Assembly: GCA_029856045.1 (NCBI GenBank)
Contig: JAHQWG010000028.1
Coordinates: forward strand, 288,001 to 352,000
From: Promethearchaeia archaeon
GTDB taxonomy: Archaea > Asgardarchaeota > Lokiarchaeia > Sigyniarchaeales > SOKP01
DNA: 64,000 bases
Reading direction: 5' to 3'
Shown here: positions 16,535-60,147 of the stretch, one piece after another
Layout: each line of letters opens with the position of its first letter
How positions within the stretch are numbered: position 1 is the first letter of the stretch
Made by a program: the position numbers and the translations under genes
Notes under the pieces: generated by a model
Told to the model about the DNA's origin: nothing
Databases searched by the model: none
The model's input: the letters and a program-made list of their open reading frames with translations, nothing else

Positions 16535-16906
16535 TTAAGATAAAAATTCTTTTATAACTTCTTTGAATTCCTTGAGATTTAATGGTTTTGAGAGCGATTT
16601 ATTAAACCTGGCACTGGCAAATACGGATTCCCTATTACCTTCAACTGGAGAAGAAGAGGCGGCAATGATTGGAGTCTCTTTAAATTTATCTATTTTACGG
16701 AGTTCTTTACAAATATCAATTCCTTTTAATTTTGGAAGGTTATTATCTAAAATAATAAGATCAGGATTCTCAGATTTTATCATTTCTAAGCCTTTATCTC
16801 CCCGAGTTTCATAGAAAACTTTAATATTTGGGATTTTCTTGAAGATAGCTTTATATAATTTGATATTGGTTTCGTTATCTTCGATAATAAAAATTTTTTT
16901 TGTCAA
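16535..16906 (-). CDS. single-domain response regulator (REC)
   Basis: IEDN, LIILDNNLP, KP motifs. Confidence 0.88.
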   Translation of the reverse strand: MTKKIFIIEDNETNIKLYKAIFKKIPNIKVFYETRGDKGLEMIKSENPDLIILDNNLPKLKGIDICKELRKIDKFKETPIIAASSSPVEGNRESVFASARFNKSLSKPLNLKEFKEVIKEFLS

Positions 16907-17004
16907 TGATTTTCCCTCTTATACTAAATTATAAACTTTTTGTCAAATAATAACATAATAATAATAAATTATTTCTATTTAAATTAAATGGAGAAAAACT
17001 TCAA

Positions 17005-17931
17005 TTGAAATATATTTTTGGTCCAGTTCCATCTCGACGGTTGGGAAATTCATTAGGGGTTGATCCAATCCCTTCTAAAACTTGTAATTTTTCATGTGTT
17101 TATTGTCAATTAGGAAGAACAACAAACTTAACAAATACAAGAAAAAATTTTTTTCCAAAAGAAGATATAATTCAAGAAATGAAACTATCATTAAAAATTC
17201 ACGAAAAAACGATGGATTTTTTAACTTTTGTAGGAAGTGGAGAACCAACATTATATAAGGATTTGAAAGATCTTATTTTAGTGGCAAAACGATTGACAAA
17301 GAAACCAGTTTGTGTAATAACCAATGGAGCATTATTGTATGATCAGGAAGTGCAAAATACTCTGATGGAAGCAGATGTTATTATGCCAAGTTTAGATGCA
17401 GGAGATGAAAAAATGTTTAAAAGGATTAATCGCCCTCATCCTGATATAAAATTTAATAAAATGGTTGAAGGGTTGATTGAATTTAGAAAAAAATTTTCCG
17501 GTAAAATCTGGATGGAGATAATGTTAATGGATGAAATTAATGATGGAATCGAATCACTTAAATTGACTAAAGTAATCCTAAATCAGATTAATCCAGACCG
17601 TACATACATTAATGTACCTATAAGACCTCCTGCAGAATCTTGGGTAAAAAAGCCAAGTAAAGAATCAATTGAAAGATGTAAGGACATTTTAGGTGAAATC
17701 TATAATATCTCTTTTCCTGAAGAAGGACAATTTTTTAGTCCAAGTTCTGACTTAGAAAATGAAATTTTATTATTAATAGAAAGACATCCAATGAGGCATG
17801 AGCAAATTCTTAAAACATTTTCAAATTTCTCTGAAAAGAAAATATTAACAATCCTAAATAAATTAGAAAAGGAAGGGAAAGTAATAAAAAAGAAATATGA
17901 TGAGGTAATATTCTGGAATTTCATTCCGTAG
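17005..17931 (+). CDS. radical SAM Fe-S oxidoreductase with C-terminal wHTH-like segment
   Basis: FGPVPSRRLG.SLG, CNFSCVYC, GSGEPTL. Confidence 0.88.
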   Translation: MKYIFGPVPSRRLGNSLGVDPIPSKTCNFSCVYCQLGRTTNLTNTRKNFFPKEDIIQEMKLSLKIHEKTMDFLTFVGSGEPTLYKDLKDLILVAKRLTKKPVCVITNGALLYDQEVQNTLMEADVIMPSLDAGDEKMFKRINRPHPDIKFNKMVEGLIEFRKKFSGKIWMEIMLMDEINDGIESLKLTKVILNQINPDRTYINVPIRPPAESWVKKPSKESIERCKDILGEIYNISFPEEGQFFSPSSDLENEILLLIERHPMRHEQILKTFSNFSEKKILTILNKLEKEGKVIKKKYDEVIFWNFIP

Positions 17932-17962
17932 TTATTGAATCTGATTTTATGTATTATTATAT

Positions 17963-18601
17963 TTATTTTATTGAGTTTGTTGCGAGCATCTCATCAAGGG
18001 CTTTAGTTATTTCTTTACATGATTCAAGCATCATTTCTGTGTAATTCACAACTGTTTGCTCAGATAGATTTCCTTGTTTTTTCCCTTCTAAAATTAATTC
18101 ACAAAATCCTTGAATAGTATTAATTCCGCTTCTAATTTGCATAGTAAATGATTCTAATGGCAAGACTTCTTCCTTTTTCATATATATCTCATTTATTTCA
18201 CTAAAAAATTTCTTAAATGATTTTATATCATCTGATAAAATTTGTTTGTTTCCTAATTTTAGGAATTCCATTTCAATTCTTCGGAAATGAATTATTGGAA
18301 TTAGCGGATATGCTACATCCCGAAGAATTATCAGTGAATATAATTGTTTCCCTCCCCGAGCGCTAGGATCTTCAACTTCTATTTTACAGATCTGGGAATA
18401 AAATTGACTATAATCCAAAATGACAAATTTATTTTTAGTATTTAATGCATCTCTCAAAAGATTTTTGACAAATTGCTCTTCCTTAAGTGGAAAAGATGAA
18501 TATAAAGTTCTGGGACCCAAAATTTGATCATATTTTCCAATAATTAAAATAAATTGATATTTATCCAATCCTTCTTTAAAATTTAGGTAATCATCAGACA
18601 T
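17963..18601 (-). CDS. longin/uDENN (folliculin-like) domain fused to a degenerate HisKA (DHp) helix pair
   Basis: FILIIGKYDQILGP and DPSARGGKQLYSLII motifs; C-terminal TMQIRSGINTIQGFCELIL resembles an H-box without His; GGAGGA SD. Confidence 0.6.
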   Translation of the reverse strand: MSDDYLNFKEGLDKYQFILIIGKYDQILGPRTLYSSFPLKEEQFVKNLLRDALNTKNKFVILDYSQFYSQICKIEVEDPSARGGKQLYSLIILRDVAYPLIPIIHFRRIEMEFLKLGNKQILSDDIKSFKKFFSEINEIYMKKEEVLPLESFTMQIRSGINTIQGFCELILEGKKQGNLSEQTVVNYTEMMLESCKEITKALDEMLATNSIK

Positions 18602-18658
18602 AGCCTTCCTCCATTTTCATATTAGATTTTATTTTTATGCTGATTTCTTTGGTTATTT

Positions 18659-20965
18659 TTAATTAGTCTCACTAATTTTTTGTAATTGTTCTTCAGTTAA
18701 TGTGATTTTAGGAATTGTAAAAAAGAATGTGGTTCCTTTATCTAATTTACTTTCAAACCAAATTTCCCCTCCATGAAGATTTACTAGTCTTTTCGTTAAT
18801 GCTAAACCCAACCCTGTCCCCTGAACCTGTTTTATCTTATCACCTTCTACTCTTCCAAATTCTCTAAAGACTACATCGTAATCCTTCTTTGCAATACCAA
18901 CACCAGTATCTTTAATTTGAAATTCCCAATGATCGATTCTTTGAATACCACGAAGTGAAACATTTCCTTGCTCTGTAAATTTAAATGCATTACTTAAAAT
19001 ATTATATAATATTTGTTTGAAACGAATAGGATCAGCAGTTAAATAATCGTGTTCATCTATACCTTTAACTTTAAATTCCAAATTTTTGTTTGAATATAAT
19101 GGTTTTATTACTGCATTAATTTCTACAATAAATTCATTTAAATCAAATTTCTGCATATTTAATTTTAATTTTCCAGCTTCAATTTTTGAGATATCTAAAA
19201 TTGAATTTATTAAACTGAGTAAATGATCTCCTGCAGAATTAATATCATTTATAAAATCTTGTTGATCTACATTTAAATTACCATATGAACCATCTAATAA
19301 CAACTGTGAAAAACCTAATATGGCATTCAACGGTGTTCTTAATTCATGAGACATTGTAGCCATAAATCTTGATTTAATATCCAAGGAAGCAAGTAATTGA
19401 TCAAATAACATTTCTCGATTCTTTTCAAAATTTTTTCTATCAGTAATATCGGAAAAAAAAGATTGAATAATTATTTGATCTTCAATTCTTAATATGGTTG
19501 ACGTAACTTCTACATACAATAGTTTTCCATACTGTGCTTTTATCAATGCTTCGACTTTATTAGGAATTGATAAATCATAAATACCTTCTTCGTAATGTTT
19601 TTTAACTATATCTATAAATTCTGGGTCAAATAACTCGTATATATTGTGTGTTAATAATTCTTCTCGATTATAGTTGAATAAATTCTCTGTTTCTCTATTA
19701 GCCTTTAAAATTTCACCCTTTTGATTTAATAGAAAAATTCCCAATGGAGCTGTTTCATTAAGCGCATCTATTTCTTGTAATGTTTTCTCTAATTTTTTTA
19801 TTTCTTTCTCAGACTGTTTTTGAGCGGTAATATCTTGTATCATCAATTGTACAATATTTTTCTCCCCCATTTTAAATAAAGAAGATTGTATATTCACCCA
19901 AGCAATGTTCCCATCCTTTTTCTTAATTTGAATTTCAAGAGGCGTTGGAGCATTTCCATCATATATATCTTTATATTTTTCTTTTATATCTGAAAGACTT
20001 GATGAAGGAAGAATAGGTGTTTCATAATATCTTTTATTGATTAACTCTTCCTTTTTATATCCAAATATTTTTTCGGTAGTATTATTGCAATCAATAATCA
20101 CACCTTCCAAATTAAGTAGGATTATGGAATTTGGAGAATTTTCAAATAGATATCTGAATTTTTCTTCTGACTCTTTTTTCTTTTTTTCCGTCTTCTTGCG
20201 TTCCGTAATATCTTCGCAATTAGTTAGGAGTACATTTTTACCACCCAACTCTATTAAGTCTATATTCATTAGAGCTGTATAAATTGTGCCGTCTTTTTTT
20301 TTCAGTTTTACTTCGAAATTATAGACCTTATCAGTTTCATGCAATTTATTAAGCAATTTTTTACGTTCATTTGGATCAACATAAGTAGAAATAAGTCTAT
20401 GAGTGTTTAACTCATCTAAGGTAAAACCTGTTATTTCTTGCATTTTTTTGTTCATAGCAAGAATATTACCCTCAAGGTCAGCAATCCCAATCCCTATTGG
20501 AGAAGAATTAAATAAAAATTGATATTTTTCCTCAGATTTTTGTATCTGGGTAGTTAATTTTTCCATTTTAATCCATGTTCGATTTCTTTCAATAGCATAT
20601 TGGATTGAACGTAATAATAGATTACTATTAATCTCATTTTTAATCAAGTAATCTTGAGTTCCTGCTTTAACCGCTTCTACACCTATTTGAAAACCATCAT
20701 TTACAGTTAGAACAATAACAGGAATATTTTGAACCTTTTCACAAGTCTTAAATACAGTATTAAGTCCAAAACTATCTGGAAGGTTTATATCTAAGAGAAT
20801 TACGTCATAATTTCTATTATCAATATGGTTAAATCCTTTCTTAAGGGTATCAGCCCAAACCAAATTAAATTTTAAATTTTTAATCTTTTTTAGCATTTCT
20901 TCTATTAATCGAACATCACCAGGATTATCTTCGATTAACAGAATATTAATTAAATTATCTAACAT
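18659..20965 (-). CDS. hybrid sensor histidine kinase REC-PAS-PAS-PAS-HisKA-HATPase
   Basis: IEDNPGD/LLDINLPD REC; three PAS ending in DIT; SHELRTPL, NILSNAFKF, DTGVG, GTGLGL. Confidence 0.93.
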   Translation of the reverse strand: MLDNLINILLIEDNPGDVRLIEEMLKKIKNLKFNLVWADTLKKGFNHIDNRNYDVILLDINLPDSFGLNTVFKTCEKVQNIPVIVLTVNDGFQIGVEAVKAGTQDYLIKNEINSNLLLRSIQYAIERNRTWIKMEKLTTQIQKSEEKYQFLFNSSPIGIGIADLEGNILAMNKKMQEITGFTLDELNTHRLISTYVDPNERKKLLNKLHETDKVYNFEVKLKKKDGTIYTALMNIDLIELGGKNVLLTNCEDITERKKTEKKKKESEEKFRYLFENSPNSIILLNLEGVIIDCNNTTEKIFGYKKEELINKRYYETPILPSSSLSDIKEKYKDIYDGNAPTPLEIQIKKKDGNIAWVNIQSSLFKMGEKNIVQLMIQDITAQKQSEKEIKKLEKTLQEIDALNETAPLGIFLLNQKGEILKANRETENLFNYNREELLTHNIYELFDPEFIDIVKKHYEEGIYDLSIPNKVEALIKAQYGKLLYVEVTSTILRIEDQIIIQSFFSDITDRKNFEKNREMLFDQLLASLDIKSRFMATMSHELRTPLNAILGFSQLLLDGSYGNLNVDQQDFINDINSAGDHLLSLINSILDISKIEAGKLKLNMQKFDLNEFIVEINAVIKPLYSNKNLEFKVKGIDEHDYLTADPIRFKQILYNILSNAFKFTEQGNVSLRGIQRIDHWEFQIKDTGVGIAKKDYDVVFREFGRVEGDKIKQVQGTGLGLALTKRLVNLHGGEIWFESKLDKGTTFFFTIPKITLTEEQLQKISETN

Positions 20966-21157
20966 ATTTTTATTTTTATTTTTTGTTTAGTTTAATTAAT
21001 AATTACGATAATATGAAAAATGATAATTTTTAATGTTATAGAAATATTGGATGAGAGAGAGATGCATAGATTATTCCACTTTTTTTTACATTAGAAAATT
21101 TTTTAAATTTATTATGTGAATACCATTAGCATTTTCTTTCAATTATAATTTATCAAA

Positions 21158-21616
21158 TTAAGTTATTTCATGCCCATCAGGTGGTAATTTGACAATCGAA
21201 AACCAGAAATCTCCAATAGATTTCACCACTTTTATAAATTGTACCATACCTATAGGTTTGGAGATATAACAGTTCGCATGTAAATTGTATGTTTTTATAA
21301 TATCCTCCTGAGATTTAGAAGTTGTTAAAACTACGACCGGAATTCGCCTTAAATCTTTATCTTGCTTAATTTCAGCTAAAACCTCACGTCCGTCTTTCTT
21401 AGGTAGATTTAAATCAAGTAAAATTACATCAGGTCGTGGTGAATTATTAAATTTTCCTTTTTTATATAAAAAATCTATTGCTTCTATACCATCCAATGCT
21501 ACGTGTAATTTATTGGCAATTTTACATTCTTTAAGAGCTTCTTTTGTCAAACGCACATCTCCTGGATTATCTTCAATTAGCAAAATTTCTATCATTTTAT
21601 ATTTTTGTTTTGTCAA
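21158..21616 (-). CDS. single-domain response regulator (Rcp1-type)
   Basis: EDNPGD, LLDLNLPKKDG, VVLTTS, ANCYISKP, FWF..VKLP. Confidence 0.93.
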   Translation of the reverse strand: MTKQKYKMIEILLIEDNPGDVRLTKEALKECKIANKLHVALDGIEAIDFLYKKGKFNNSPRPDVILLDLNLPKKDGREVLAEIKQDKDLRRIPVVVLTTSKSQEDIIKTYNLHANCYISKPIGMVQFIKVVKSIGDFWFSIVKLPPDGHEIT

Positions 21617-21663
21617 AACTTTTACCTTATTTTTTTCTTTAAATTTCTTCTTTTTTCATATAA

Positions 21664-24345
21664 TTATTTTTTTATTGGAATAGTAAAATGAAATGTTGAA
21701 CCCTTTCCAACTTCTGATTCAACCCAGATTTTTCCATTATGTCTTTCTATAATTCTTTTACATAGGGCTAAACCTATTCCTGTGCCAGGATATTCAGATT
21801 TTGAATGTAAACGTTGAAAAATAATAAAAATACGATCAAAATATTCTGGATCTATGCCGATCCCGTTATCTTTTACTGAAAATTGCCAGTTTTTTTTAAT
21901 CTTTTTCGCCGAAATATGTATACGCACGGGATCTTCACTGCGGAATTTTATTGCATTACCAATCAAATTTTGAAACACTTGCAGAAGTTGTGTTTTATCT
22001 ACCATTACATTTGGTAAATAATCATAGGTTATCTTTACATCTATTTCTCTTATAATCTTATGTAGATTTAAAAGAACATCTTTTAAAACCTCTTCACAGT
22101 TAGTAAATTCAAAAGGATTACCACGAGTCTGAATTCTTGAATATTCTAATAAATTTTCTATAAGAACTTTCATATTATTTGCACCATCTACAGCATATTT
22201 AATGAACTCATTTGCATCCTCATCTAATTTATCTTTATAACGCTTTGCTAGGAGTTGGGTATAACTTGCCACCATTCTTAATGGTTCTTGTAAGTCATGA
22301 GATGCAATATAAGCAAATTGTTGTAATTCTTCATTGGAACACTTTAAATCGGCCATAATTTGTTGTAATTCTTTTTCTTTCTTCCTGCGCTCGGCAATAT
22401 CTCGGAAGATAAGGATAACACCTATAATATTACCTTTATCATTCTTTATTGGTGCGCCACTATCAGCGATCGGTATTTCCTTTCCATTTTTCGCTATTAA
22501 GATAGTATTATTCGCCAGACCGACAATAAATCCTTCTCGAAGGACTCTAGATACAGGATTTTCAACAGATTTACGCGTTTCCTCTTTAATGATATTAAAA
22601 ATATATTGTATGGGTTTTTCTATAGCTTCTTCTAACTTCCAGCCAGTCAAAGACTCGGCAATTGGATTTAAAAATGATACCTTACTTTTTATGTCAGTAG
22701 TAATTACTGCATCCCCAATACTTCTGAGTGTTGTGGAAAGCCATTCTTCACTCTCTTTTAATCTTTCTTCGGATTTTTGGAGCTTTTGAGTGCGCTTCTC
22801 TACCAATTCTTCAAGATGATCACGATATTTTCTCAATTCCTTCTCCGTTTTTTTACGCTCGGTAATGTCTATAAAAGAAGCCATCCTACCGATATCGTTC
22901 CCATCCTGATCCGTCACAACGGAAGTGGATACTTCAACAGGAAACTCCGTGCCGTCATTGCGTTGCGCAATAAATTCTTCAGTCTCGCCTTTTACCTTGT
23001 CAATAATCGTTTGCACATCAGAAAACCTCTGTACTACCTCTCTGGGAATTAATTCTCTAGCAGATTTACCGAGTAAACCTTCCTTGCTTTCATATTCAAA
23101 CATTCTCGCAAAAACTGGATTGACATACGTTATTTCTCCTTTAAGGTTCGTTATGATAACGCCGCTCACTGAAGAATCTATCGCATCGTAAGCAACGCTT
23201 AACTCTCGCTCCAACTTCTTGCGCTCGGTAATATCTTTTATAATAAATGCAATATCTATTGTCTTACCATCAGGTCCCTTTACAATAAAAGTGGTTAGTA
23301 AAATGGGAATTCTCGAACCGTCTTTTCTTATATATTCTTTTTCATACGTTTCAGGATTTCCTGTTTTTATGATCCTTTCTATTATTTTGTATTCATATTC
23401 TTCGTACTCCTCCGGAGTTATATCTTGAAATTTTTTTCTGGCTAATAATTCCTCTTTTGAATAACCCGTTAGCTCGGAAAAAGCATCATTAACATCCAAT
23501 AGCATTCCATCCAAATTAGCATAGGCTATGGCATCTTTTGAGGAGTTGAATATCCCATTGAAACGTTCTTGAACCTTTCCATTCTCCTCCTCTGCTTTCT
23601 TTCGCTCCGTAATATCCTGTCCAACTCCTTGAATCCCAATTGCCTTTCCATCAGCATCTTTTACTGCAGTAACATTCCATGAGATCAAAATCCTTTCTTT
23701 TTTACCCTTTTTCCAATAATATTGCTCAAAACCTTCTTGACTCCTATTTGGATCTATTATAACCTTCTGCCTTACGGGTTCAGCCTTTTCTAATTCATTT
23801 TTCTCAAGCATTGATCTTATATCATTACCAATCATCTCCCCTTCTTCATATCCTAATATTTTACAGGCGTATGGATTCATTAAAGTTACTCTCCACTCAT
23901 CATCGTATGCCAAAACGATGGCATTGGCATTATTTACTAGCATTTTGTAGCTATACAATTCTGCCTTTATCTTCTTACTCTCAGTAATATCTCTGAAAAC
24001 TTCAATAACTACTGGATTACCATAAAAATCTTCTACGAAAAAAGCGTCAATTCCAAAATATTTTGTTTCTTTGGTTGAAGGAAATGTTGTAATTTTTTCG
24101 AATCTCATCCTACGTTGTTCTATTGTCAAAGAGTTTTCAATAGGACAAGATTCACAAGGTTTTGAGCGCTTAAATAAAGTATTATAGCAGTTTTTTCCAA
24201 CCAAATTCTTTCCGAATTCTTTGAGAGCATTTTCATTTGCAAATAATATCTTATTCTTCTGAGAAATAACCAAAATTGGATCTTTCATATTTGAAAAGAT
24301 TAATCCTAATTCTTCTAGAGATTTTTTTAAATCTTGTGTTGCTAT
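21664..24345 (-). CDS. multi-PAS (5x) sensor histidine kinase, Cph1-type H-box; start ATA 24345 or ATG 24288
   Basis: ASHDLQEPLR, NLIGNAIKF, DNGIG, GTGIGL; five PAS/PAC units; GGTGA SD precedes the ATA at 24345. Confidence 0.92.
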   Translation of the reverse strand: MATQDLKKSLEELGLIFSNMKDPILVISQKNKILFANENALKEFGKNLVGKNCYNTLFKRSKPCESCPIENSLTIEQRRMRFEKITTFPSTKETKYFGIDAFFVEDFYGNPVVIEVFRDITESKKIKAELYSYKMLVNNANAIVLAYDDEWRVTLMNPYACKILGYEEGEMIGNDIRSMLEKNELEKAEPVRQKVIIDPNRSQEGFEQYYWKKGKKERILISWNVTAVKDADGKAIGIQGVGQDITERKKAEEENGKVQERFNGIFNSSKDAIAYANLDGMLLDVNDAFSELTGYSKEELLARKKFQDITPEEYEEYEYKIIERIIKTGNPETYEKEYIRKDGSRIPILLTTFIVKGPDGKTIDIAFIIKDITERKKLERELSVAYDAIDSSVSGVIITNLKGEITYVNPVFARMFEYESKEGLLGKSARELIPREVVQRFSDVQTIIDKVKGETEEFIAQRNDGTEFPVEVSTSVVTDQDGNDIGRMASFIDITERKKTEKELRKYRDHLEELVEKRTQKLQKSEERLKESEEWLSTTLRSIGDAVITTDIKSKVSFLNPIAESLTGWKLEEAIEKPIQYIFNIIKEETRKSVENPVSRVLREGFIVGLANNTILIAKNGKEIPIADSGAPIKNDKGNIIGVILIFRDIAERRKKEKELQQIMADLKCSNEELQQFAYIASHDLQEPLRMVASYTQLLAKRYKDKLDEDANEFIKYAVDGANNMKVLIENLLEYSRIQTRGNPFEFTNCEEVLKDVLLNLHKIIREIDVKITYDYLPNVMVDKTQLLQVFQNLIGNAIKFRSEDPVRIHISAKKIKKNWQFSVKDNGIGIDPEYFDRIFIIFQRLHSKSEYPGTGIGLALCKRIIERHNGKIWVESEVGKGSTFHFTIPIKK

Positions 24346-24826: not shown

Positions 24827-25195
24827 TTAGACAATAACATTTTTGACTGTTTCCCTAAAATCGTTAATATTTATTGGTTTTGCAATGTAAGTATCGAAAC
24901 CTGCTTTCAATATACGTTCTTTATCACCTTTCATCGCGAAAGACGTGACAGCAATAATTGGAATGTTTTTATATTTTTCAAGTTTACGAAGTTCTTTACA
25001 AATATCGATTCCACTCATATCTGGTAGTTGAATGTCTAAAATTATTAGGTCTGGATTATCTGACTTTAGAGATTCAAAAGCTCGGGCACCATGCGTTTCT
25101 GCTACAATTTCAATATCAAGCATTGTATTTAGGACTGCTTTAAACAATTTCATGTTTTTTTCATTATCTTCCACAAGAAATACTCGTTTTTTCAT
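24827..25195 (-). CDS. single-domain response regulator (DivK-like)
   Basis: VEDN, LIILDIQLP, AVTSFAMKGDKERIL.AGFD.YIAKPI. Confidence 0.92.
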   Translation of the reverse strand: MKKRVFLVEDNEKNMKLFKAVLNTMLDIEIVAETHGARAFESLKSDNPDLIILDIQLPDMSGIDICKELRKLEKYKNIPIIAVTSFAMKGDKERILKAGFDTYIAKPININDFRETVKNVIV

Positions 25196-25263: not shown

Positions 25264-25396
25264 ACTATAATAACAAATTTTGATAACAAATAGATACAAA
25301 ATATTAGTGATAAACATAGTATTTAAATGTTTTGTTATAATAATGTGTTTGTTAACATTGAATTCTTTTTTACAATATTATAACAAATATTTAAAA
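25264..25396. promoter_or_regulatory. divergent promoter region with clustered ATAACAAA/TTTGTTAT sites
   Basis: ATAACAAA at 25270, 25283, 25380; TTTGTTAT at 25331; TATA-like boxes at 25320-25327 (minus) and about 25390 (plus). Confidence 0.55.
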
Positions 25397-25622: not shown

Positions 25623-26483
25623 ATGAATAATAAGAAAACTGAAGAGATGGAAAAATATGAAAAAATGACTGGCAAACACGCAATTTGGCGTGGTGTAATA
25701 ACTGAAGGATTTAAAAAATGGCAACGAGGAGAAAAAATTTATGATAGATTTAAGGAGAGAATAGCTCTATATGTAGCTAAAGAAACTAAAGAAGAATGGC
25801 AGAATTTCATAAATAATTCAAAATATACTTCTGTTTCTAAGCTTGTGAGAGATGCAGTAAATAATTTCATTGAAAAAAAATTAAAAGTAATAGATTATAA
25901 GAATTATAGTAAAGATAATCAGCTTAGAGATCTTTCAGATATCTCACATGTTTTAAAAGAAGCATTAACTTCAATAAAAGGTTTCTCACAATTATTAATT
26001 GAAAATTATAAGGAAGAACTCAATGAGGAAATCATTTTAAAAATAAAAGAAATTTTTGATAAAAGCATCTTCCTTGAAAACAAGATTAATGAATCTTTAG
26101 AATATTCTCAAACTAAAAAATCACAATACGACATTTTATTAATTGAAGATGATATTTCAACAATAAAATTATTAACATCATTTTTTGAAAGGAAAGGTTA
26201 TAGTTGTAAAGGTGTCATAAGTGGTTCTAGAGGATTGGATGAATTGAAGAGAAATATTCCAAAAATAATTTTATTAGACATTATTTTACCTGATATTAAT
26301 GGATTTGAAGTTTGCAAAATAATAAAATCTAATAAAGAATATCAAAATATTCCCATCTTTCTATTAACTGCTGTATCAAGTCTAAAAGTTGAGCATCTTA
26401 TTAAAAAAGCAAAAGTAGATGGTTATATCTCAAAACCTTTTGATTTTTCGGATTTTAATATAATATTGGAATACTTACATTAA
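25623..26483 (+). CDS. RHH-DHp-REC protein: ribbon-helix-helix, HisKA helices with His, receiver domain; no HATPase
   Basis: ERIALYV.KETKEEWQNF...YTSVSKLVRDAVNNFI (RHH pattern); ISHVLKEALTSIKGFSQLL; IEDD/LLDIILPD/LTA/KPF. Confidence 0.75.
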   Translation: MNNKKTEEMEKYEKMTGKHAIWRGVITEGFKKWQRGEKIYDRFKERIALYVAKETKEEWQNFINNSKYTSVSKLVRDAVNNFIEKKLKVIDYKNYSKDNQLRDLSDISHVLKEALTSIKGFSQLLIENYKEELNEEIILKIKEIFDKSIFLENKINESLEYSQTKKSQYDILLIEDDISTIKLLTSFFERKGYSCKGVISGSRGLDELKRNIPKIILLDIILPDINGFEVCKIIKSNKEYQNIPIFLLTAVSSLKVEHLIKKAKVDGYISKPFDFSDFNIILEYLH

Positions 26484-26486
26484 TTT

Positions 26487-28493
26487 TTAATCTTTTAAAA
26501 TGGGAAGAGAAAAATAAAATTTACTTCCTCTATTTCTTCCTTCTGATGCCATCCAGATATTTCCCTCGTGTAAATCAATAATCTTTTTCGCAATATATAG
26601 ACCGAGCCCTGTACCCTCAATTCTAACATCCCAACCTTGACCATATCTTTCAATTTTTCCAAATTGTTTAAATAATTGATTCTTTTCCTCAGCGGAAAAC
26701 CCAATTCCATTATCTTCTATTGAGATTATGAAAAAGTTAGATTTTACTTCAGAAAAGATTTTAATTTCTCCTCCAGGAGGAGTGTAATTAATTGCGTTTA
26801 ATAATAAATTTGAAAAGACTTCATAAATCCGCTGTTTATCAAAAGTTGTAATTAAATTATTATCAATATTTAAGGAAATAGATTGGTTTCTCAGCTCTAA
26901 CACAGCTTGCATTTCTTTTAAGCAGGATTTGATCAATTTTGATAAATTTCCTTGTTTTAAAATTAATTTTAATTGTCCAGATTCTAATTGGGATGATTCT
27001 AGGAGAGAATTAACTATATTATCAAGGCGCAGACATCCTTGTTTAATTTCTTTTAAAATGGATATTGTCTTATTATCATATTTCTCTTCAAATTTTGTTA
27101 ATAAAAAGTCAGAGAACCCCTTAATTGAGACAAGAGGAGTTTTCAATTCATGGGAAGTTCTATTTAGTAAATTGGTTTTAAATTTATTTATTTCACTTAG
27201 TCGTATATTTTGCTCCTTTAAATTTTTCTGAATTTGCCATCTTTGTTCTTCAACCTTAATGGCACCACAAACTAAGGACAAAATCAAATGTTCTTGGTGT
27301 GAAATAGCAGGATTTTCTCTTTTTAAAATACAAATAAAACTATTAAATTTATCTTTAGACTTAATTAATCTTCCAAATCCTCCTTTTATGTTGTATTTAA
27401 TAATAAAAGGATCAGTTTTTGCATATTGGGTTTCATTTAGATTTATAAATGTTTGTATAATATTCTGTTTAAGCTCGAATGTTTCATTTGTAAAATAATT
27501 CTTTTTAAATTCTTCCTTATTGCAATTAAAATTATTATCATCACTAGAAATGATTTGATATATTTTATTTCCATTTTGCACCCTTTTTCGAATATATAAT
27601 ACACTTTCTGCTTTACTCAATTTCTTTACTGTTTGAATTAGAGTTTTAATATTCGATTGGAAATCTGGTGTAAACTTTAAAAAACTTAAATTTATTTCAT
27701 AAATTAAATTTTCATAAGTCTTTCTTTCATTAATATCTTGATAAGTTGTTTGAACATAAATATTATTTCCGAATTTTATTAAAGAGCTCTGGAGACTTAC
27801 CCAAATCTTTTGTCCATCTACATTTAGTAATTCAACTTCAATAGGACTAATTACTCCTCCTTTAATTATAGTTTCAAATCGATCTTTAAGTAGCAGTAAA
27901 ATTTCTTGAGGATATATATCAAGTTGGTTCTTAGTTTTACCAACAATTGTATCCTTTCTATATCCAAATAATCGTTCCGTTGCAGAGTTACAATCAATAA
28001 CTCTTCCTTTTAAATTTGCTAAAATGATGGCGTAGGGAGAATTTTCAAATAAGAATCGATATTTCGCTTCAGATTCTATTAATTTTTGCTCAGTTTCTTT
28101 ACGTTCAGTGATTTCTAACACAAATTCAACTGCTCCAATAATATTATCATTATTATCTTTCACTGGAGAAGCTTTTACCTTCCATACCCTTCCATCGGGA
28201 GTAGTTTGTTCTGCTTCATGAGATTGCCTTGTTTCAATAGTTTTCAGCACAGGGCAATTAGCACATGGTGCATTTCTCTGATGCCATATCTCATAGCAAT
28301 AGCCACCAATTAATTTATCAGTTGTTAGACTCACAGATTCAGAAGCGGCTTTGTTTGCCCACAAAATTTTTAATTCGTTATTATAATATAATATAAGCTC
28401 AGAAATACTGTTCAAAATAGGAGAGTTAAAAGTAATTTTAAGATTTCCTTCATTCTTTGAACTCGCATTATTTTCGAATTTTTGATTTTGCAT
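26487..28493 (-). CDS. sensor histidine kinase PAS-PAS-GAF-like-HisKA-HATPase
   Basis: CYE...CANCP PAS; SHELKTPL; NLLLNAINY; DNGIG; FGKIERYGQGWDVRIEGTGLGL. Confidence 0.9.
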   Translation of the reverse strand: MQNQKFENNASSKNEGNLKITFNSPILNSISELILYYNNELKILWANKAASESVSLTTDKLIGGYCYEIWHQRNAPCANCPVLKTIETRQSHEAEQTTPDGRVWKVKASPVKDNNDNIIGAVEFVLEITERKETEQKLIESEAKYRFLFENSPYAIILANLKGRVIDCNSATERLFGYRKDTIVGKTKNQLDIYPQEILLLLKDRFETIIKGGVISPIEVELLNVDGQKIWVSLQSSLIKFGNNIYVQTTYQDINERKTYENLIYEINLSFLKFTPDFQSNIKTLIQTVKKLSKAESVLYIRKRVQNGNKIYQIISSDDNNFNCNKEEFKKNYFTNETFELKQNIIQTFINLNETQYAKTDPFIIKYNIKGGFGRLIKSKDKFNSFICILKRENPAISHQEHLILSLVCGAIKVEEQRWQIQKNLKEQNIRLSEINKFKTNLLNRTSHELKTPLVSIKGFSDFLLTKFEEKYDNKTISILKEIKQGCLRLDNIVNSLLESSQLESGQLKLILKQGNLSKLIKSCLKEMQAVLELRNQSISLNIDNNLITTFDKQRIYEVFSNLLLNAINYTPPGGEIKIFSEVKSNFFIISIEDNGIGFSAEEKNQLFKQFGKIERYGQGWDVRIEGTGLGLYIAKKIIDLHEGNIWMASEGRNRGSKFYFSLPILKD

Positions 28494-28742
28494 ATTTTCT
28501 AACTAATTAATATTTATTCAAAAGAATCAAATGAATAATTTTAATAAAAATTAAACTTAGAAGGTTATTTTTGCTAATAGCATAAAGAAAATAATAAAAG
28601 AAGTATATTAAATTAAGCATCATAAAGTTAAAATTGGAAAAATAAGATTAAATTTTGTGCTAATAATAAAAAAACTTATATTATAATTTGTGATAATAAT
28701 AATCTAGATATGTTATAAATACAGTGAATCCTTCCTTTTTTA

Positions 28743-29618
28743 TTGGTGATTTCAATTTTGAATAATGAAAAAAAAAATAGTGAAATGGAACAATATGAAA
28801 AAGAGACAGGAAAATATGCTGTTTGGCGTGGTATCATAACTGAAGGATTTAAAAAGTGGAAAAGAGGAGAAAAGATTTATGATAGAGATAAGGAGAGAAT
28901 ATCACTCTATATATCGGAAGAAACTAAAAAAAAATGGCAAAATTTTATTGAAAGTAGCAAATATTCTTCAATTTCAAAATTGATAAGAGATGCTATGGAT
29001 TTTTTTATTAATGAGAAATTAAGAGGAGGTATTGATGAAAAACTTAAAAAATCAAGACCTTTTAAATCAATTACTGATATTTCCCATGATTTAAAAGAGG
29101 CTTTAACTACCATAAAAGGATTTTCACAGTTATTGCTTAATAACTATAAGGATGATATAAAAGAAGATGTATTATCAAAAATTAAGGAGATTTTTAATAA
29201 AAGTATATTTCTTGAAAATAAAATAAAAGAAGTCTTGGAAAAAGGAGAAAATAGAAAGACACAATATGACCTTTTATTAATTGAAGATGACCCATCGACT
29301 ATAAAATTATTAACCACGTTTTTTGAAAGTAAAGGTTATTCTAGTAGAGGGGTAATTAGTGGTTCTAAGGGAATAGAAGAATTAAAAGTAAATGTTCCAA
29401 AATTAATATTATTAGATATAATATTGCCAGATATAAATGGATATGATGTTTGTAAAATTATAAAATCTGATGAGAATCTTAAATATATTCCAGTTTTTTT
29501 CTTAACGGCAATTCCAAGTTCAGAAGTTGAGAAAAAAATTAAATTTGCTGGTGCAGATGGATATATTTTGAAACCATTTGATTTTAGTGATTTTGAAATT
29601 TTATATACATATCTATAA
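28743..29618 (+). CDS. RHH-DHp-REC protein, paralogue of 25623-26483
   Basis: Same architecture: TGKYAVWRGIITEGFKKW, ERISLYI..., ISHDLKEALTTIKGFSQLL, intact REC. Confidence 0.75.
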   Translation: MVISILNNEKKNSEMEQYEKETGKYAVWRGIITEGFKKWKRGEKIYDRDKERISLYISEETKKKWQNFIESSKYSSISKLIRDAMDFFINEKLRGGIDEKLKKSRPFKSITDISHDLKEALTTIKGFSQLLLNNYKDDIKEDVLSKIKEIFNKSIFLENKIKEVLEKGENRKTQYDLLLIEDDPSTIKLLTTFFESKGYSSRGVISGSKGIEELKVNVPKLILLDIILPDINGYDVCKIIKSDENLKYIPVFFLTAIPSSEVEKKIKFAGADGYILKPFDFSDFEILYTYL

Positions 29619-29765: not shown

Positions 29766-31073
29766 ATGGTTATAGGCATAGCATTATTTAGTTGGGATAA
29801 GAAGATGGGTCCGGTTTTAGAGATTAAACATCCTGAAAATCTTGATTTATCACAAAATTTAATTAATAAAATATATATGACTCATGCTTATAGGCAGGAA
29901 AATCAAAATGAAGAGTTAATGGAAATTAATCTGGAGAATAAAATTATACTTAGCTACTGTGATATGTCTAAAGTTGCAAAATTTGGGTATGAAATAATTA
30001 TTCTTATTGTTCATGAGAAGGAGAAAATACATCTTAAAAATTTAAAATCCAAATTATTTGAATTTGCGAGAGAAGTGTTAAATAAACCTAAAATTGAGAG
30101 ACATAAGTATTTTTTTGAAAATCTCGATTTGTTTTTTAAAGAAACATTAAAGAAAAAGATATTATTAGTTGGACGAGCAGCTACAGGAAAATCTAGTATT
30201 AAGCAAGTTATTTTTGAAGGAAAGATGCCACAGGAGTTATTATCTAATCCCCTTGAGCCAACTCGTGGTTTAACACCCTCTGTTTATTCATGGTTAGATC
30301 TGGATTTGGGTATTTTCGATTCAGCTGGTCAAGAACTGGATTATTTATTAGATGATAAAAATGAACAAACCTTAGCATTCGAAAATACTGATATTATAAT
30401 ATATATGTTTGATTACCTAACGTGGGTTGAAAATAACGAAATAATAATAAAAGATATCAGAAAAATTTCAAGAATTATTAAACAAGAGTCTTATAATGCT
30501 AGGATTATATTATTTCTACATAAAATTGACTTAATTAAGGAAGAAAATAGAGAACAAAACATAAAAAATATCCAGCGAGAAATAAAAGAACAATTGAATT
30601 TACAGATTTATTTTACAAGTCTTTATCCAAATTTAATTTATAATACTTATAATGCATTTTATGAGATTTTGAGTAATTTTTCCAAAGAGACAATTTATTT
30701 TAAAGAAATTTTGGATGAAAAAATTAAAGACAGTTCAAAATCTATGTGTTTTATAACTAATCAAAACAGTAGTATAGTTGTTCAGACAATGTCTAATGAT
30801 TTCAATTTTAAATTAATCAACCAAATTCATAGATTAATTGCTCAATTTGACCAATCATTTGAAGACATGTGTATGAATGATAATATCGATTATATGATAC
30901 TTTCAAGTTTGAAAAATTTTAATATTATTATGAAATTTCTTAACCTCTCGAATTATAATCTTAAAAATTTAATTTTAATCTCTGAAATAGCTAGTATCAA
31001 TCAATTAATAGGATTTTGTGAGGAAATTAAAAGTACTTTGAATAGATATTTTTATAAAGATATTCAACTATGA
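29766..31073 (+). CDS. Rag/Gtr-like GTPase with N-terminal longin/uDENN-like and C-terminal roadblock-like domains
   Basis: IALFSWDKKMGP N-terminus; KKILLVGRAATGKSSIKQVIF, EPTRG, DSAGQ, HKID, FTSLY. Confidence 0.8.
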   Translation: MVIGIALFSWDKKMGPVLEIKHPENLDLSQNLINKIYMTHAYRQENQNEELMEINLENKIILSYCDMSKVAKFGYEIIILIVHEKEKIHLKNLKSKLFEFAREVLNKPKIERHKYFFENLDLFFKETLKKKILLVGRAATGKSSIKQVIFEGKMPQELLSNPLEPTRGLTPSVYSWLDLDLGIFDSAGQELDYLLDDKNEQTLAFENTDIIIYMFDYLTWVENNEIIIKDIRKISRIIKQESYNARIILFLHKIDLIKEENREQNIKNIQREIKEQLNLQIYFTSLYPNLIYNTYNAFYEILSNFSKETIYFKEILDEKIKDSSKSMCFITNQNSSIVVQTMSNDFNFKLINQIHRLIAQFDQSFEDMCMNDNIDYMILSSLKNFNIIMKFLNLSNYNLKNLILISEIASINQLIGFCEEIKSTLNRYFYKDIQL

Positions 31074-31082
31074 GAATCTAAA

Positions 31083-32588
31083 ATGGGTAAGAAGATAATT
31101 TTCGTTGGACCGCCTGGAGCGGGAAAAACCACCTTAAGAAAAGTTTTTTTTGAGGGAGAATCTTCTTCAAAATTATTAGATTATGCATTAGAGCCTACAC
31201 ATGGTAAAGAATCAGTTATTCTTCAGTTAAGTGAGGATGTTGGAGTGTTTGATCTAGCAGGTCAGGAAAATACAAGGTGGTTTGAAACAGATGATAAAGA
31301 AATTTTCTACGATACAAAAATTCTTATAGTAGTTATTGATATTACAACAGACCATGAAAGAATTATAGAGTTTATTAACAGAGTTATTAAAATTCGAAAT
31401 GAATTAACACCGACTGCATTTATATATATATTAATTCATAAAATTGATTTGGTAGCACAAAAAACAATCAAAGCAATAAAATATAAAATTTCTGATGTTA
31501 TTGGTGAGGAAAAGTCTGTTAAAATTGCATTTACAAGTATTCAGAAAGTATATTTCCCCTCAACATTTTCATTGTTTATGGATATCTTAGATACATGTAT
31601 AAGTGAAAGGGTAACTCCTGAAAGAATTAATTTGAATCTACTTCAAAACACTATTGATTTTTTATATGAATTACAAAAGAGTGTTTTAATTTCGAAAGAT
31701 GATTTACAGATAAGATTAAAAGCTCCTGATGAAATGATTGATTCTATAAGCAAACTATTGAGTAATAAAGGACATATTGATGTTTCAAAAATAAATGATA
31801 GAACAATTTTTAGTTTAACTGATAAAGGTAAAAATTATTTTAAAGAAATTTTAAATAAATTTTCTTTGCAAAAATTGATTAAATTTGAGAAAGAACATTA
31901 TAAGACAGAAGCCGCTTTAGGGCCAAAAGTTCCTCCATATTTAGGTTTTTTGGTGGCTGATAAAGATGGAAAAACAATAATAAATGTAGAAATATTTGAC
32001 GGAGCTTTTGATTTAATCTTAAATGCTGAAGAGGGAGCAATGAAAACTGATTTTGAGTTAATTCCTATGTTCATTAGTGCTTTAGAAAAATTCTCGGAAG
32101 AAATAAATATAAAGGAATTAGCGGGTTTTCAATTAAAGGGAACAAATATTGAAATGCAAACTTTATCTTTTGAATTATATACAGTTACTCTTTTTATAAA
32201 TCCAGAAACAAATGTTAAATTTTTTGAATATATAATCAGAGAATGGTTTGAAAATCTTTTTGAAATACATAGAAAAGAACTTGAGTCTGCTATTAAGACT
32301 GGTTATATGACTCAAGTTTCTAAATTAAATCAAGAAGGGAGAGAATGGTTGGACAATCTTAACCAAAGATATAAAAATATGGCTATGAACTTGGAGATTT
32401 TTGATTTTGATCAAGCTAAAGTACTTTATCATCATATAGATGATATATCTGCAGATATTAATTTTAAATATACTTTAGTCTTACAAAAGATCAAAAAATT
32501 AAAAATAGATTTAATGAAGGCGATATTAGTAGAAGATTTTCAAGAAGTAAAAGAAATTGCCGGTAAGATTCGAGAAATTAAAGTTTAA
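31083..32588 (+). CDS. Rag/Gtr-like GTPase with wHTH, longin/roadblock-like domain and UVR-like C-terminal helix
   Basis: GPPGAGKT, EPTHG, DLAGQ, HKID, FTSIQ; SKLLSNKGHI...FSLTDKG wHTH end; YLGFLVADKDGKT; AILVEDFQEVKEI. Confidence 0.78.
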   Translation: MGKKIIFVGPPGAGKTTLRKVFFEGESSSKLLDYALEPTHGKESVILQLSEDVGVFDLAGQENTRWFETDDKEIFYDTKILIVVIDITTDHERIIEFINRVIKIRNELTPTAFIYILIHKIDLVAQKTIKAIKYKISDVIGEEKSVKIAFTSIQKVYFPSTFSLFMDILDTCISERVTPERINLNLLQNTIDFLYELQKSVLISKDDLQIRLKAPDEMIDSISKLLSNKGHIDVSKINDRTIFSLTDKGKNYFKEILNKFSLQKLIKFEKEHYKTEAALGPKVPPYLGFLVADKDGKTIINVEIFDGAFDLILNAEEGAMKTDFELIPMFISALEKFSEEINIKELAGFQLKGTNIEMQTLSFELYTVTLFINPETNVKFFEYIIREWFENLFEIHRKELESAIKTGYMTQVSKLNQEGREWLDNLNQRYKNMAMNLEIFDFDQAKVLYHHIDDISADINFKYTLVLQKIKKLKIDLMKAILVEDFQEVKEIAGKIREIKV

Positions 32589-58287: not shown

Positions 58288-60147
58288 TTGAATAAATTAT
58301 TAGAACAAGAAGTGGAGGAAATGACTAAGAAATTAAACGAAACCAAAGAAAAATATCAGACCTCATATGAGTATAGTAAAGATGGCATTAGTTTGATAGA
58401 TACGTATCATGCTAATGAAAGTATAATTATGGATTTGAAAAATAGGAAATCAGGAATTGAAATATTAGATGTCATTCCATGGGGTACTCATCTCTGTCTT
58501 TTTTACGAAAAAAAAGAAGATTTATTTGAAATTTTAATACCTTATTTTAAAGCAGGATTAGAGAATAATGAATACTGTATTTGGGTAACTTCAGAACCAC
58601 TAAATCAAAAAGATGTTGAAATAGGTATAAGTAAAGCTATACCAAATTTTGAGCAATATCTAAAAAGAAAACAAGTAGAGATAATTCCATATTTTGACTT
58701 TTATTTTAAAAATAACGAGTTTGATCTGCAAAGAGTTCTTTATGAATGGATTGAGAAATTAAAGTACGCCTTAAATGAAGGATATGATGGATTAAGAGTG
58801 ACTGGGAATACTGCTTGGCTTGAGAAAAAAGATTGGAAAAGCTTTACTGATTATGAAGCAGAAATAAATAGTGTGATACCATTCCATAAGATGATTGCCA
58901 TTTGCACTTATGCACTCGAGAAATGTGGACCATTTGAATTATTAGATGTTATAAATAATCATCAATTTGCTCTTCTTAGACGGGAGGGCGAGTGGGAGTA
59001 CTTTAAAAGCATGGAACAAATTAAGGTAGAACGAAAATTAAAAGAATCCGAAGAAAAATATCGAAATATTCTTGATAATATACAAGAAGGGTATCTTGAA
59101 GTAGATCTCAAGGGAAATTATACTTTTGTGAATGATTATCATTGTTATTTTTTTGGTATTTCGAAAGATGATACGATTGGAAATAATTATGCGGAATTTG
59201 TAGATAAAAAACAAAAAAAAAAATTATTCGAAATTTTCAACAAAGTATATAGAAGAGAAGTTCCCAGTGCAAGATTTGAGATTGAAGCTATTAGATATGA
59301 CGGGGAGAAACGAATCTATGAGGGTACCTGTAATTTAAAATTAGATTCTAATGGTAGAAGGATTGGTTTTTATAGTCTTACTCGAGATATTACTGAAAGA
59401 AAAGAGGCAGAAAAGTTAATGATAGAGGAGTTAAATAAACTCACAGAACTTGATCAACTTAGAAGAGATTTTGTATCCAGAGCATCACATGAGTTAAAGA
59501 CCCCATTAACGTCTATATATAGCGCTACCCAACTCCTTTTAGAGTTATATAAAGATCAATTAGGAAAAAATGCTTTAGAACTTGTTGAAATGATTGAGAA
59601 AGGAGGATATAGGTTGAAAGGATTGGTCGAAAAATTACTAGATTTTTCACGTATTGAATCAGGAAGATTCCAGTTATATAAGAAAATGGAGAATGCTACT
59701 GAGATTATTAGGGATTGTATAAGTAATATGGCATATTTAGCAAATAAACGAAATATTATTTTGAATGTGGATCTTCCAGAAACATTTAATATAGAATTAG
59801 ATAAAGTAAGATTTGAACAAGTTGTTATAAATTTATTATCAAATGCTATTAAAAACACTCCACCTATTGGTGATATTCAAATTAGTTTAAGCAAACAGAA
59901 TGGATTTATGGTGTTTTCCGTAAAAGATAGTGGTGTAGGTCTCACAAGAAGTGAAAGGGGTAAGATTTTCAAAAAATTCGGAAAAATTGAAAGATATGGA
60001 AAGGGTTTAGATATAATTCCTGAAGGAGTCGGTCTCGGGCTTTTTATTTCGAAGGAAATAGTAGAGAATCATGGAGGTAAAATTTTTGTTGAGTCCAAAG
60101 GAAGAGATAAGGGTGCAAATTTTATTGTAAAATTACCTTTTAAATGA
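58288..60147 (+). CDS. sensor histidine kinase MEDS-PAS-HisKA-HATPase (5' region degraded)
   Basis: MEDS IPWGTHLCLFY...GLRVTG...CTY..H; SHELKTPL; NLLSNAIK; DSGVG; FGKIERYGKGLDIIPEGVGLGL. Confidence 0.87.
   Translation: MNKLLEQEVEEMTKKLNETKEKYQTSYEYSKDGISLIDTYHANESIIMDLKNRKSGIEILDVIPWGTHLCLFYEKKEDLFEILIPYFKAGLENNEYCIWVTSEPLNQKDVEIGISKAIPNFEQYLKRKQVEIIPYFDFYFKNNEFDLQRVLYEWIEKLKYALNEGYDGLRVTGNTAWLEKKDWKSFTDYEAEINSVIPFHKMIAICTYALEKCGPFELLDVINNHQFALLRREGEWEYFKSMEQIKVERKLKESEEKYRNILDNIQEGYLEVDLKGNYTFVNDYHCYFFGISKDDTIGNNYAEFVDKKQKKKLFEIFNKVYRREVPSARFEIEAIRYDGEKRIYEGTCNLKLDSNGRRIGFYSLTRDITERKEAEKLMIEELNKLTELDQLRRDFVSRASHELKTPLTSIYSATQLLLELYKDQLGKNALELVEMIEKGGYRLKGLVEKLLDFSRIESGRFQLYKKMENATEIIRDCISNMAYLANKRNIILNVDLPETFNIELDKVRFEQVVINLLSNAIKNTPPIGDIQISLSKQNGFMVFSVKDSGVGLTRSERGKIFKKFGKIERYGKGLDIIPEGVGLGLFISKEIVENHGGKIFVESKGRDKGANFIVKLPFK

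Follow-up and report, generated by a model that had tools for sequence, protein, structure and literature searches.

Two Paralogous RHH-HisKA-Receiver Proteins of a Promethearchaeia Archaeon Are Candidate Phosphorylation-Controlled Transcription Factors

Introduction

Archaeal two-component systems rarely have a DNA-binding output, and the route by which their signals reach transcription is largely obscure. Here we describe two paralogous genes from a Promethearchaeia archaeon (assembly GCA_029856045.1), found in a stretch of 64,000 nt with a G+C content of about 27% (contig JAHQWG010000028.1, positions 288,001–352,000, forward strand). This whole stretch is called the window, and coordinates refer to it unless a contig or locus is named. 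Both genes encode a small N-terminal module (here called WRG after its motif), a predicted ribbon-helix-helix (RHH) fold, a HisKA-type dimerization and histidine phosphotransfer (DHp) hairpin that carries a histidine, and an intact receiver. We consider each protein to be a dimeric, phosphorylation-controlled transcription factor, with a probability of about 0.6, and find its family to be a near-universal trait of one family of the Loki class.

Proteins of this type have been catalogued before. The census of Galperin et al. (2018; J Bacteriol; PMC5847659) lists "Arc-type RHH-HisKA-REC" proteins in Lokiarchaeum sp. GC14_75, devoting one sentence to them and assigning no function, and we found no later study of the family in the literature. 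The listed proteins share domain order and lineage with the window pair, which shows all three of the census features (an RHH domain, HisKA without HATPase_c, and a receiver with phospho-acceptor residues); the two window proteins are members of this family. An earlier prediction for this DNA, made from the sequence alone (the original prediction), spoke of an unusual class; in the sense of an undescribed one this does not hold, as the architecture is already in the census. The census mentions neither the WRG module nor synteny with the gene for transcription factor TFB, nor the division into A and B paralogs or the narrow distribution. New here are that distribution, the ancestral TFB synteny, the derived B-type pair within a two-component island, and the WRG module on RNA polymerase subunit A'.

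Results

An open reading frame (ORF) listing confirmed both genes on the plus strand, copy 1 at 25623–26483 (286 codons) and copy 2 at 28743–29618 (291 codons, with a TTG start and the next ATG at 28785). The two products share 65% identity across 284 residues (E = 6e-136) and the same domain order. In copy 1 the WRG module is encoded at 25635–25730, the RHH at 25746–25898, the DHp hairpin at 25911–26111 (His109, CAT at 25947–25949) and the receiver at 26127–26480 (Asp219 at 26277–26279). The corresponding positions in copy 2 are 28773–28868, 28884–29036, 29049–29249 (His115 at 29085–29087) and 29265–29615 (Asp225 at 29415–29417).

Pfam REC was matched strongly by both copies (71 bits, cut-off 30.2). 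For HisKA the window copies fell just short of the cut-off (21.3 and 25.3 vs. 26.9 bits), and a match was present in 28/28 aligned relatives, with a best E of 2.8e-10. HATPase_c was absent from both copies by Pfam, and the 112 clusters with a match to the N-terminal part are all too short for a complete kinase, apart from fusions that were checked. In the alignment of the 28 relatives the receiver residues D176, D177, D219, T249 and K271 are invariant, as are the H-box residues S-x-x-L-K-E-x-L-T-x-I-K-G and, in 28/28 relatives, the predicted RHH strand K-E-R-I-x-L-Y; residues Y12, W22, R23, T27, E28 and W33 of the N-terminal motif are conserved. Among the top NCBIfam matches to the receiver are those of hybrid kinases.

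A full-length AlphaFold model (28 sequences, predicted local distance difference test [pLDDT] score 76) placed a helix at residues 7–16, a beta-hairpin at 21–26 and a second helix at 28–34 in the WRG module. Residues 42–50 were of low confidence and were followed by helices at 53–64 and 71–89, then by the DHp helical hairpin (97–132 and 135–162) with the receiver fold directly after it. The elements within the first 90 residues recurred in a separate model of that part (51 sequences, pLDDT 87). When residues 39–90 of the model were searched against about 48,000 Protein Data Bank (PDB) representatives, they matched almost solely RHH proteins, with Z scores of 4.6–5.9 and whole targets covered. 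ParD2 came out on top (Z = 5.9, 49/49 residues), with TacA1 (5.6), NikR (5.0) and the RHH domain of PutA (4.8) also found, together with PrpA, RHH-type MazE, CopG, CopA, omega and AmrZ. Foldseek gave the same RHH set with a probability of up to 0.94 and an E of about 1, the latter because the domain is small (45 residues); with the full-length model it returned receivers only. The N-terminal profile found only weak CopG matches in the PDB (E = 0.13 and 1.3), plus spurious S1 matches. One homolog (P0060) is annotated at source as a CopG/Arc/MetJ regulator. The models thus predict an RHH fold at residues of about 43–94, and residues 45–85 or so, to which the original prediction had assigned this fold, do form it in silico. 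The ORFs, the identity between the copies and the domain and fold evidence also bear out the rest of the architecture that it described: two paralogous RHH-DHp-REC proteins with a conserved N-terminal motif, a DHp that has its His and no ATPase domain, and a receiver with all five catalytic residues kept.

A word-based search returned more than 100 full-length homologs at 56–60% identity, which carry Loki-, Thor-, Hod-, Hermod- or Odinarchaeota source names, and 173 relatives turned up when one genome per species was scanned. The N-terminal profile was present in 61/66 genomes of one GTDB family of the Loki class (f1, nine genera), and was found in 0/7 genomes of the sister family and 0/7 genomes of three further families of the class. 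With the first 105 residues as query, phmmer matched only 112 of 1.84 billion cluster representatives. The family is therefore a lineage-specific, near-universal trait of f1. An Asgard-wide family was rejected on these counts (61/66 in f1, 0/14 in the other families of the class) and on those of the WRG profile, which was present in 5/5 f1 genomes and in 0/36 genomes from 17 other families of the phylum. The uL2 genes beside the copies labeled Thor, Hod, Hermod or Odin are 86–99% identical to Loki-labeled uL2, and nine such loci (L016, L017, L018, L026, L039, L058, L063, L069 and L079) have Loki-type uL2 and the same synteny; the phylum labels of these metagenome-assembled genomes look wrong. 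One further locus (L085) is labeled Nanopelagicaceae, which suggests a mis-binned contig.

To compare gene neighborhoods, all ORFs in 80 loci were clustered and Pfam was run on cluster representatives. In about 60 of the 80 a tandem pair of family genes lies divergent from a TFB gene, in a fixed order that begins with GatE, GatD, uL2, TFB (on the opposite strand) and the two family genes. This continues with a JAB-like gene of 160 aa, sometimes an acyltransferase gene, a DUF2110 gene and a 123-aa gene, and ends with proteasome alpha, SBDS, Rrp4, Rrp41 and Rrp42. A tree of 154 members split into two deep clades, one for the TFB-proximal copy (A) and the other for the distal one (B), and the label by position changes only twice on the tree; within a genome A and B are about 62% identical. 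The ancestral state is a tandem A/B pair beside a divergent TFB gene and the exosome/proteasome cluster, and this position fits a role in transcription. Both window copies, together with those of three sister species (L013, L014 and L015), form one clade with support of 100 on the B side of the split, and the window copies are B-type at 7/8 A/B-diagnostic positions. The A copy was therefore lost or overwritten, and a B-type gene duplicated, in the genus to which the window belongs. The orthologous TFB gene and JAB-like gene of this genome lie on another contig, 205 kb apart, and the window pair sits in a two-component island in which the genes for three PAS kinases and as many stand-alone receivers are packed into 13 kb.

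A sensor histidine kinase gene (26487–28493, minus strand; 668 aa, PAS-PAS-HisKA-HATPase_c) lies between the two copies, tail-to-tail with copy 1 and divergent from copy 2. The original prediction had a PAS-GAF kinase flanked by the pair; the flanking and the PAS domains were confirmed, and no GAF domain was detected by domain search in residues 257–438. The kinase has a canonical H-box (H-E-L-K-T, of the form H-E-x-x-T), and its H-box region resembles that of the regulators, with 38% identity over query residues 97–183. It is likely to be the phosphodonor in this genome. The gene for a stand-alone receiver of 122 aa (24827–25195, minus strand) is divergent from copy 1, and its product may be a phosphorelay partner or serve as a phosphate sink. 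A conserved kinase neighbor was rejected, and a flanking kinase as a general feature was not sustained, since no match to the three kinases of the window was found within 8 kb at the other 77 loci; the arrangement is peculiar to this genus.

The histidine of the DHp hairpin is kept in 124/132 relatives and is Tyr or Phe in the other 8. Copy 1 of the three sister species, an 88–92% identical ortholog, has Tyr, and beyond these one more relative with Tyr and one with Phe were seen. The residue four positions after the histidine (H+4) is Glu throughout the family; directly after the histidine (H+1), copy 1 has Val and copy 2 Asp, and most relatives have Ala, with Thr also seen. HisKA kinase activity needs an acidic residue at H+1, and phosphatase activity needs Thr or Asn at H+4 (Willett and Kirby, 2012; PMC3510030). 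As the family has no Thr or Asn at H+4 and mostly no acid at H+1, the hairpin is not a hidden kinase or a canonical phosphatase; a bifunctional HisKA kinase/phosphatase would have an ATP-binding domain and an H+1 acid combined with Thr or Asn at H+4, which these proteins do not. Simple His-Asp phosphotransfer, which needs neither residue, may still occur. Both copies are under purifying selection, with ratios of non-synonymous to synonymous substitution rates (dN/dS) of 0.2–0.5, as are the Tyr-bearing orthologs of copy 1 (dN/dS 0.29–0.49). A built-in phosphotransfer His had been proposed; the residue is there, and its role is putative, given the Tyr and Phe variants and the atypical H+1 and H+4 residues.

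The three sister species retain just the last 106 codons of the kinase gene, and a 1.8-kb stretch that corresponds to 26806–28603 of the window is deleted in all three with identical end-points. They are exactly the species whose copy 1 has Tyr, and the window, with its intact kinase, has His. Between the window and L013 the synonymous substitution rate (dS) is 0.235 for copy 1 and 0.056 for copy 2, and across the region matching 24800–29700 in L013–L015 the same species pairs show a four-fold difference in dS between the copy 1 and copy 2 segments. Such discordance argues for homologous recombination of a linked haplotype among the sister species. Repeated, independent change of His to Tyr coupled to kinase loss was rejected in favor of one deletion haplotype with recombination around it.

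Upstream regions were searched for a 14-nt box, for a palindrome and for family-wide motifs. The box TTTGTKMTAATAAT occurs upstream of copy 1 as an exact copy at 25331–25344 (plus strand) and as an inverted copy with one mismatch at 25374–25387 (minus strand), and upstream of copy 2 as two exact direct copies on the plus strand (28654–28667 and 28687–28700), 33 nt apart. Exact copies in the window occur only upstream of the two genes, and genome-wide there are 8 matches vs. 3 for the control; as the pattern was derived from these same sites, they are candidates and a lead only. The palindrome TTTGTTATAACAAA has no exact copy in the genome; 7 sites vs. 4 in the control were found genome-wide with up to one mismatch, and 8 vs. 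3.0 expected in the window with up to two. In the wider family TTAGTGGT[AC]AAA was found upstream of copy A in 25/62 cases vs. 3/805 controls, and ATTGTAAACAAT upstream of copy B in 19/67. Both are confined to subsets and may reflect relatedness. The invariant K-E-R-I-x-L-Y strand, for its part, argues for one conserved DNA target.

The WRG module has about 32 residues and was modeled as helix, beta-hairpin and helix with pLDDT above 90. A profile search with this N-terminal motif showed it to be a separate module, present in four proteins of the genome. Besides the two regulators, these are a 251-aa protein in which two WRG modules in tandem are combined with a zinc ribbon (CxxC...CxxC) at the C-terminus (contig C9, L012:1102–1857, minus strand) and RNA polymerase subunit A', where the module follows a Lys-rich linker at the extreme C-terminus (E = 6.8e-6; contig C35:131806–131892, locus L102:1477–3075, minus strand), directly ahead of the A'' gene. 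Four further f1 genomes have this A' tail, and one sister-family genome lacks it. Elsewhere the module forms arrays of 2–7 copies or sits on Ras/Arf-like GTPases, and a NosD-like membrane protein carries it on its tail. A 415-aa metagenome protein (P0182) joins an Arf-like GTPase to a WRG module and a receiver of the family type, with neither RHH nor DHp; it is either a natural fusion or deletion variant or an assembly chimera.

No known family matched the WRG module, and an ESM Atlas search with it returned nothing. PF01693, the hybrid-binding domain at the N-terminus of RNase H1, gave a single sub-threshold match (E = 0.0015, 19.2 bits, cut-off 21) to the second module of the two-repeat protein on contig C9. 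It was not matched by any of 22 regulator modules, and neither PF01693 against 81 genomes nor the WRG profile against the PDB gave a match. Resemblance to the RNase H1 domain is unsupported beyond that one weak match.

The rest of the two-component island lies at 16535–24288. On the minus strand this stretch encodes stand-alone receivers at 16535–16906 and 21158–21616, a REC-PAS-PAS-PAS-HisKA-HATPase kinase at 18659–20965 and a kinase with five PAS domains at 21664–24288; an unrelated radical-SAM gene lies within it on the plus strand. A further minus-strand gene (17963–18601) encodes a 212-aa longin-DHp protein with sub-threshold Pfam matches to Folliculin (E = 0.0017) and HisKA (E = 0.012), a second kinase-less DHp-like protein of the island, in this case without the His. 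Two adjacent Gtr1/RagA-like GTPase genes follow the island directly downstream of copy 2 (29766–31073 and 31083–32588, plus strand), a neighborhood common only to the three sister species. One further two-component gene, for a MEDS-PAS-HisKA-HATPase_c sensor kinase, lies at 58288–60147 (plus strand).

Discussion

Our analysis suggests that these proteins join a DNA-binding fold to the DHp and receiver parts of a two-component system. By analogy with these domains elsewhere, two DHp hairpins would form a four-helix bundle that holds two RHH halves together, and these would build a two-stranded, DNA-reading ribbon. With its linker of about 8 residues, the receiver takes the place that the ATPase domain has in a kinase and would be able to dock on the DHp. 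Phosphorylation of the receiver Asp by a sensor kinase (in this genome probably the PAS kinase whose gene separates the two copies) may then change this docking and the bundle, and the change in the bundle would alter DNA binding or the pairing of dimers on neighboring sites. Phosphoryl exchange between the conserved His and the receiver Asp may also occur and serve either as a buffer or for relay to the neighboring stand-alone receivers; this step appears to be dispensable in some lineages. The phosphorylation-controlled dimeric RHH factor of the original prediction is thus the best reading, and its phosphotransfer His is the part that is no more than possible.

Retention in 61/66 genomes, purifying selection, the kinase between the copies and the coincidence of kinase loss with the change of His to Tyr all speak for this transcription-factor reading. 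Several points weigh against it. DNA binding is so far predicted only: RHH_1 was sub-threshold in copy 2 (E = 0.083) and in the 13/28 relatives that it matched (best E = 0.0028), the fold-match Z scores of 5–6 are modest in absolute terms, and the monomer models leave the ribbon strand unformed, which is normal because an RHH sheet is built from two chains. None of the three operator searches gave a convincing site. Beyond this genus the search of 77 loci found no match to the window kinases within 8 kb, and the kinase deletion and the His-to-Tyr change are a single linked event or haplotype, not repeated independent evidence.

What the DHp hairpin does is where other explanations arise. The invariance of the H-box around a histidine kept in 124/132 relatives, the three stand-alone receivers nearby (24827–25195, 21158–21616 and 16535–16906) and the loss of the His only where the adjacent kinase is deleted would suit a fused Spo0F-plus-Spo0B-like shuttle, in which the receiver Asp is phosphorylated by a sensor kinase and the DHp His then takes over the phosphoryl group and hands it to a separate receiver, with DNA binding secondary. 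We regard this as unlikely, as Tyr and Phe variants are still under purifying selection, the RHH strand is as well conserved as the H-box, and the ancestral loci lack the kinase and stand-alone receiver genes of this island nearby. Somewhat better placed, though still doubtful, is a DivL-like pseudokinase scaffold, whose DHp would serve only as a surface for dimerization and receiver docking and whose His, without a chemical role, would be kept by structural constraint or history. At least three replacements of the His by Tyr or Phe have left the rest of the H-box intact, H+4 is Glu where Thr or Asn would be needed and H+1 mostly Ala (Willett and Kirby, 2012), and the island encodes another kinase-less, His-less DHp-like protein (17963–18601). 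However, 94% retention of the His at an overall family identity of about 57–62% exceeds what neutral drift would lead one to expect.

The operator results and the presence of WRG modules at the end of RpoA', on GTPases and on membrane-protein tails could instead point to a phosphorylation-controlled adaptor that does not bind DNA, the RHH-like region and WRG module mediating contacts with proteins such as RNA polymerase or TFB. This seems improbable in view of fold matches that are nearly all to DNA-binding RHH proteins and of the invariant basic and aromatic strand. A bolder combination, in which WRG is an undescribed lineage-specific docking or nucleic-acid module, the regulators and the polymerase share a partner or bind each other, and the His is a true internal relay step, is one we would put forward only as a long shot. 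If true, a WRG module shared by RHH regulators and RNA polymerase would form a direct link from signal to polymerase.

Known systems resemble the window pair in part. Hybrid HisKA kinases such as ArcB, BarA and HrmK likewise have a HisKA hairpin with an H-box and then a receiver; unlike them, the pair has no ATPase, Glu in place of Thr or Asn at H+4, and a DNA-binding fold in place of a sensor. Spo0B and ChpT, to which no sequence match of the pair was found, are also kinase-less four-helix-bundle proteins that retain a His, and the window copies have a predicted helical hairpin with a His; but those proteins have a degenerate ATPase-like domain and no receiver or DNA-binding domain, whereas in the pair a receiver follows the hairpin. 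Caulobacter DivL, in which a DHp reads the state of a receiver, recalls the Tyr at the His position of the copy 1 orthologs, but DivL has retained an ATPase-like domain and the receiver that it binds, DivK, is a separate protein, whereas the window copies have the His and no such domain. NikR, PutA and the ParD/CopG-type antitoxins, which include the best structural matches, begin with an RHH, and the domain after it sets the dimer; there the control domain binds a metal, an enzyme or a toxin, and here it is a two-component DHp-receiver.

The family is a near-universal, strongly conserved candidate link between signal and transcription in one Loki-type Asgard group, usually encoded back-to-back with a TFB gene and sharing a small module with RNA polymerase. 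The window holds its most tractable version, a complete set of parts with the regulator pair, an intact candidate kinase and several receivers, and the three sister species provide a natural comparison in which the kinase is deleted and the His is Tyr.

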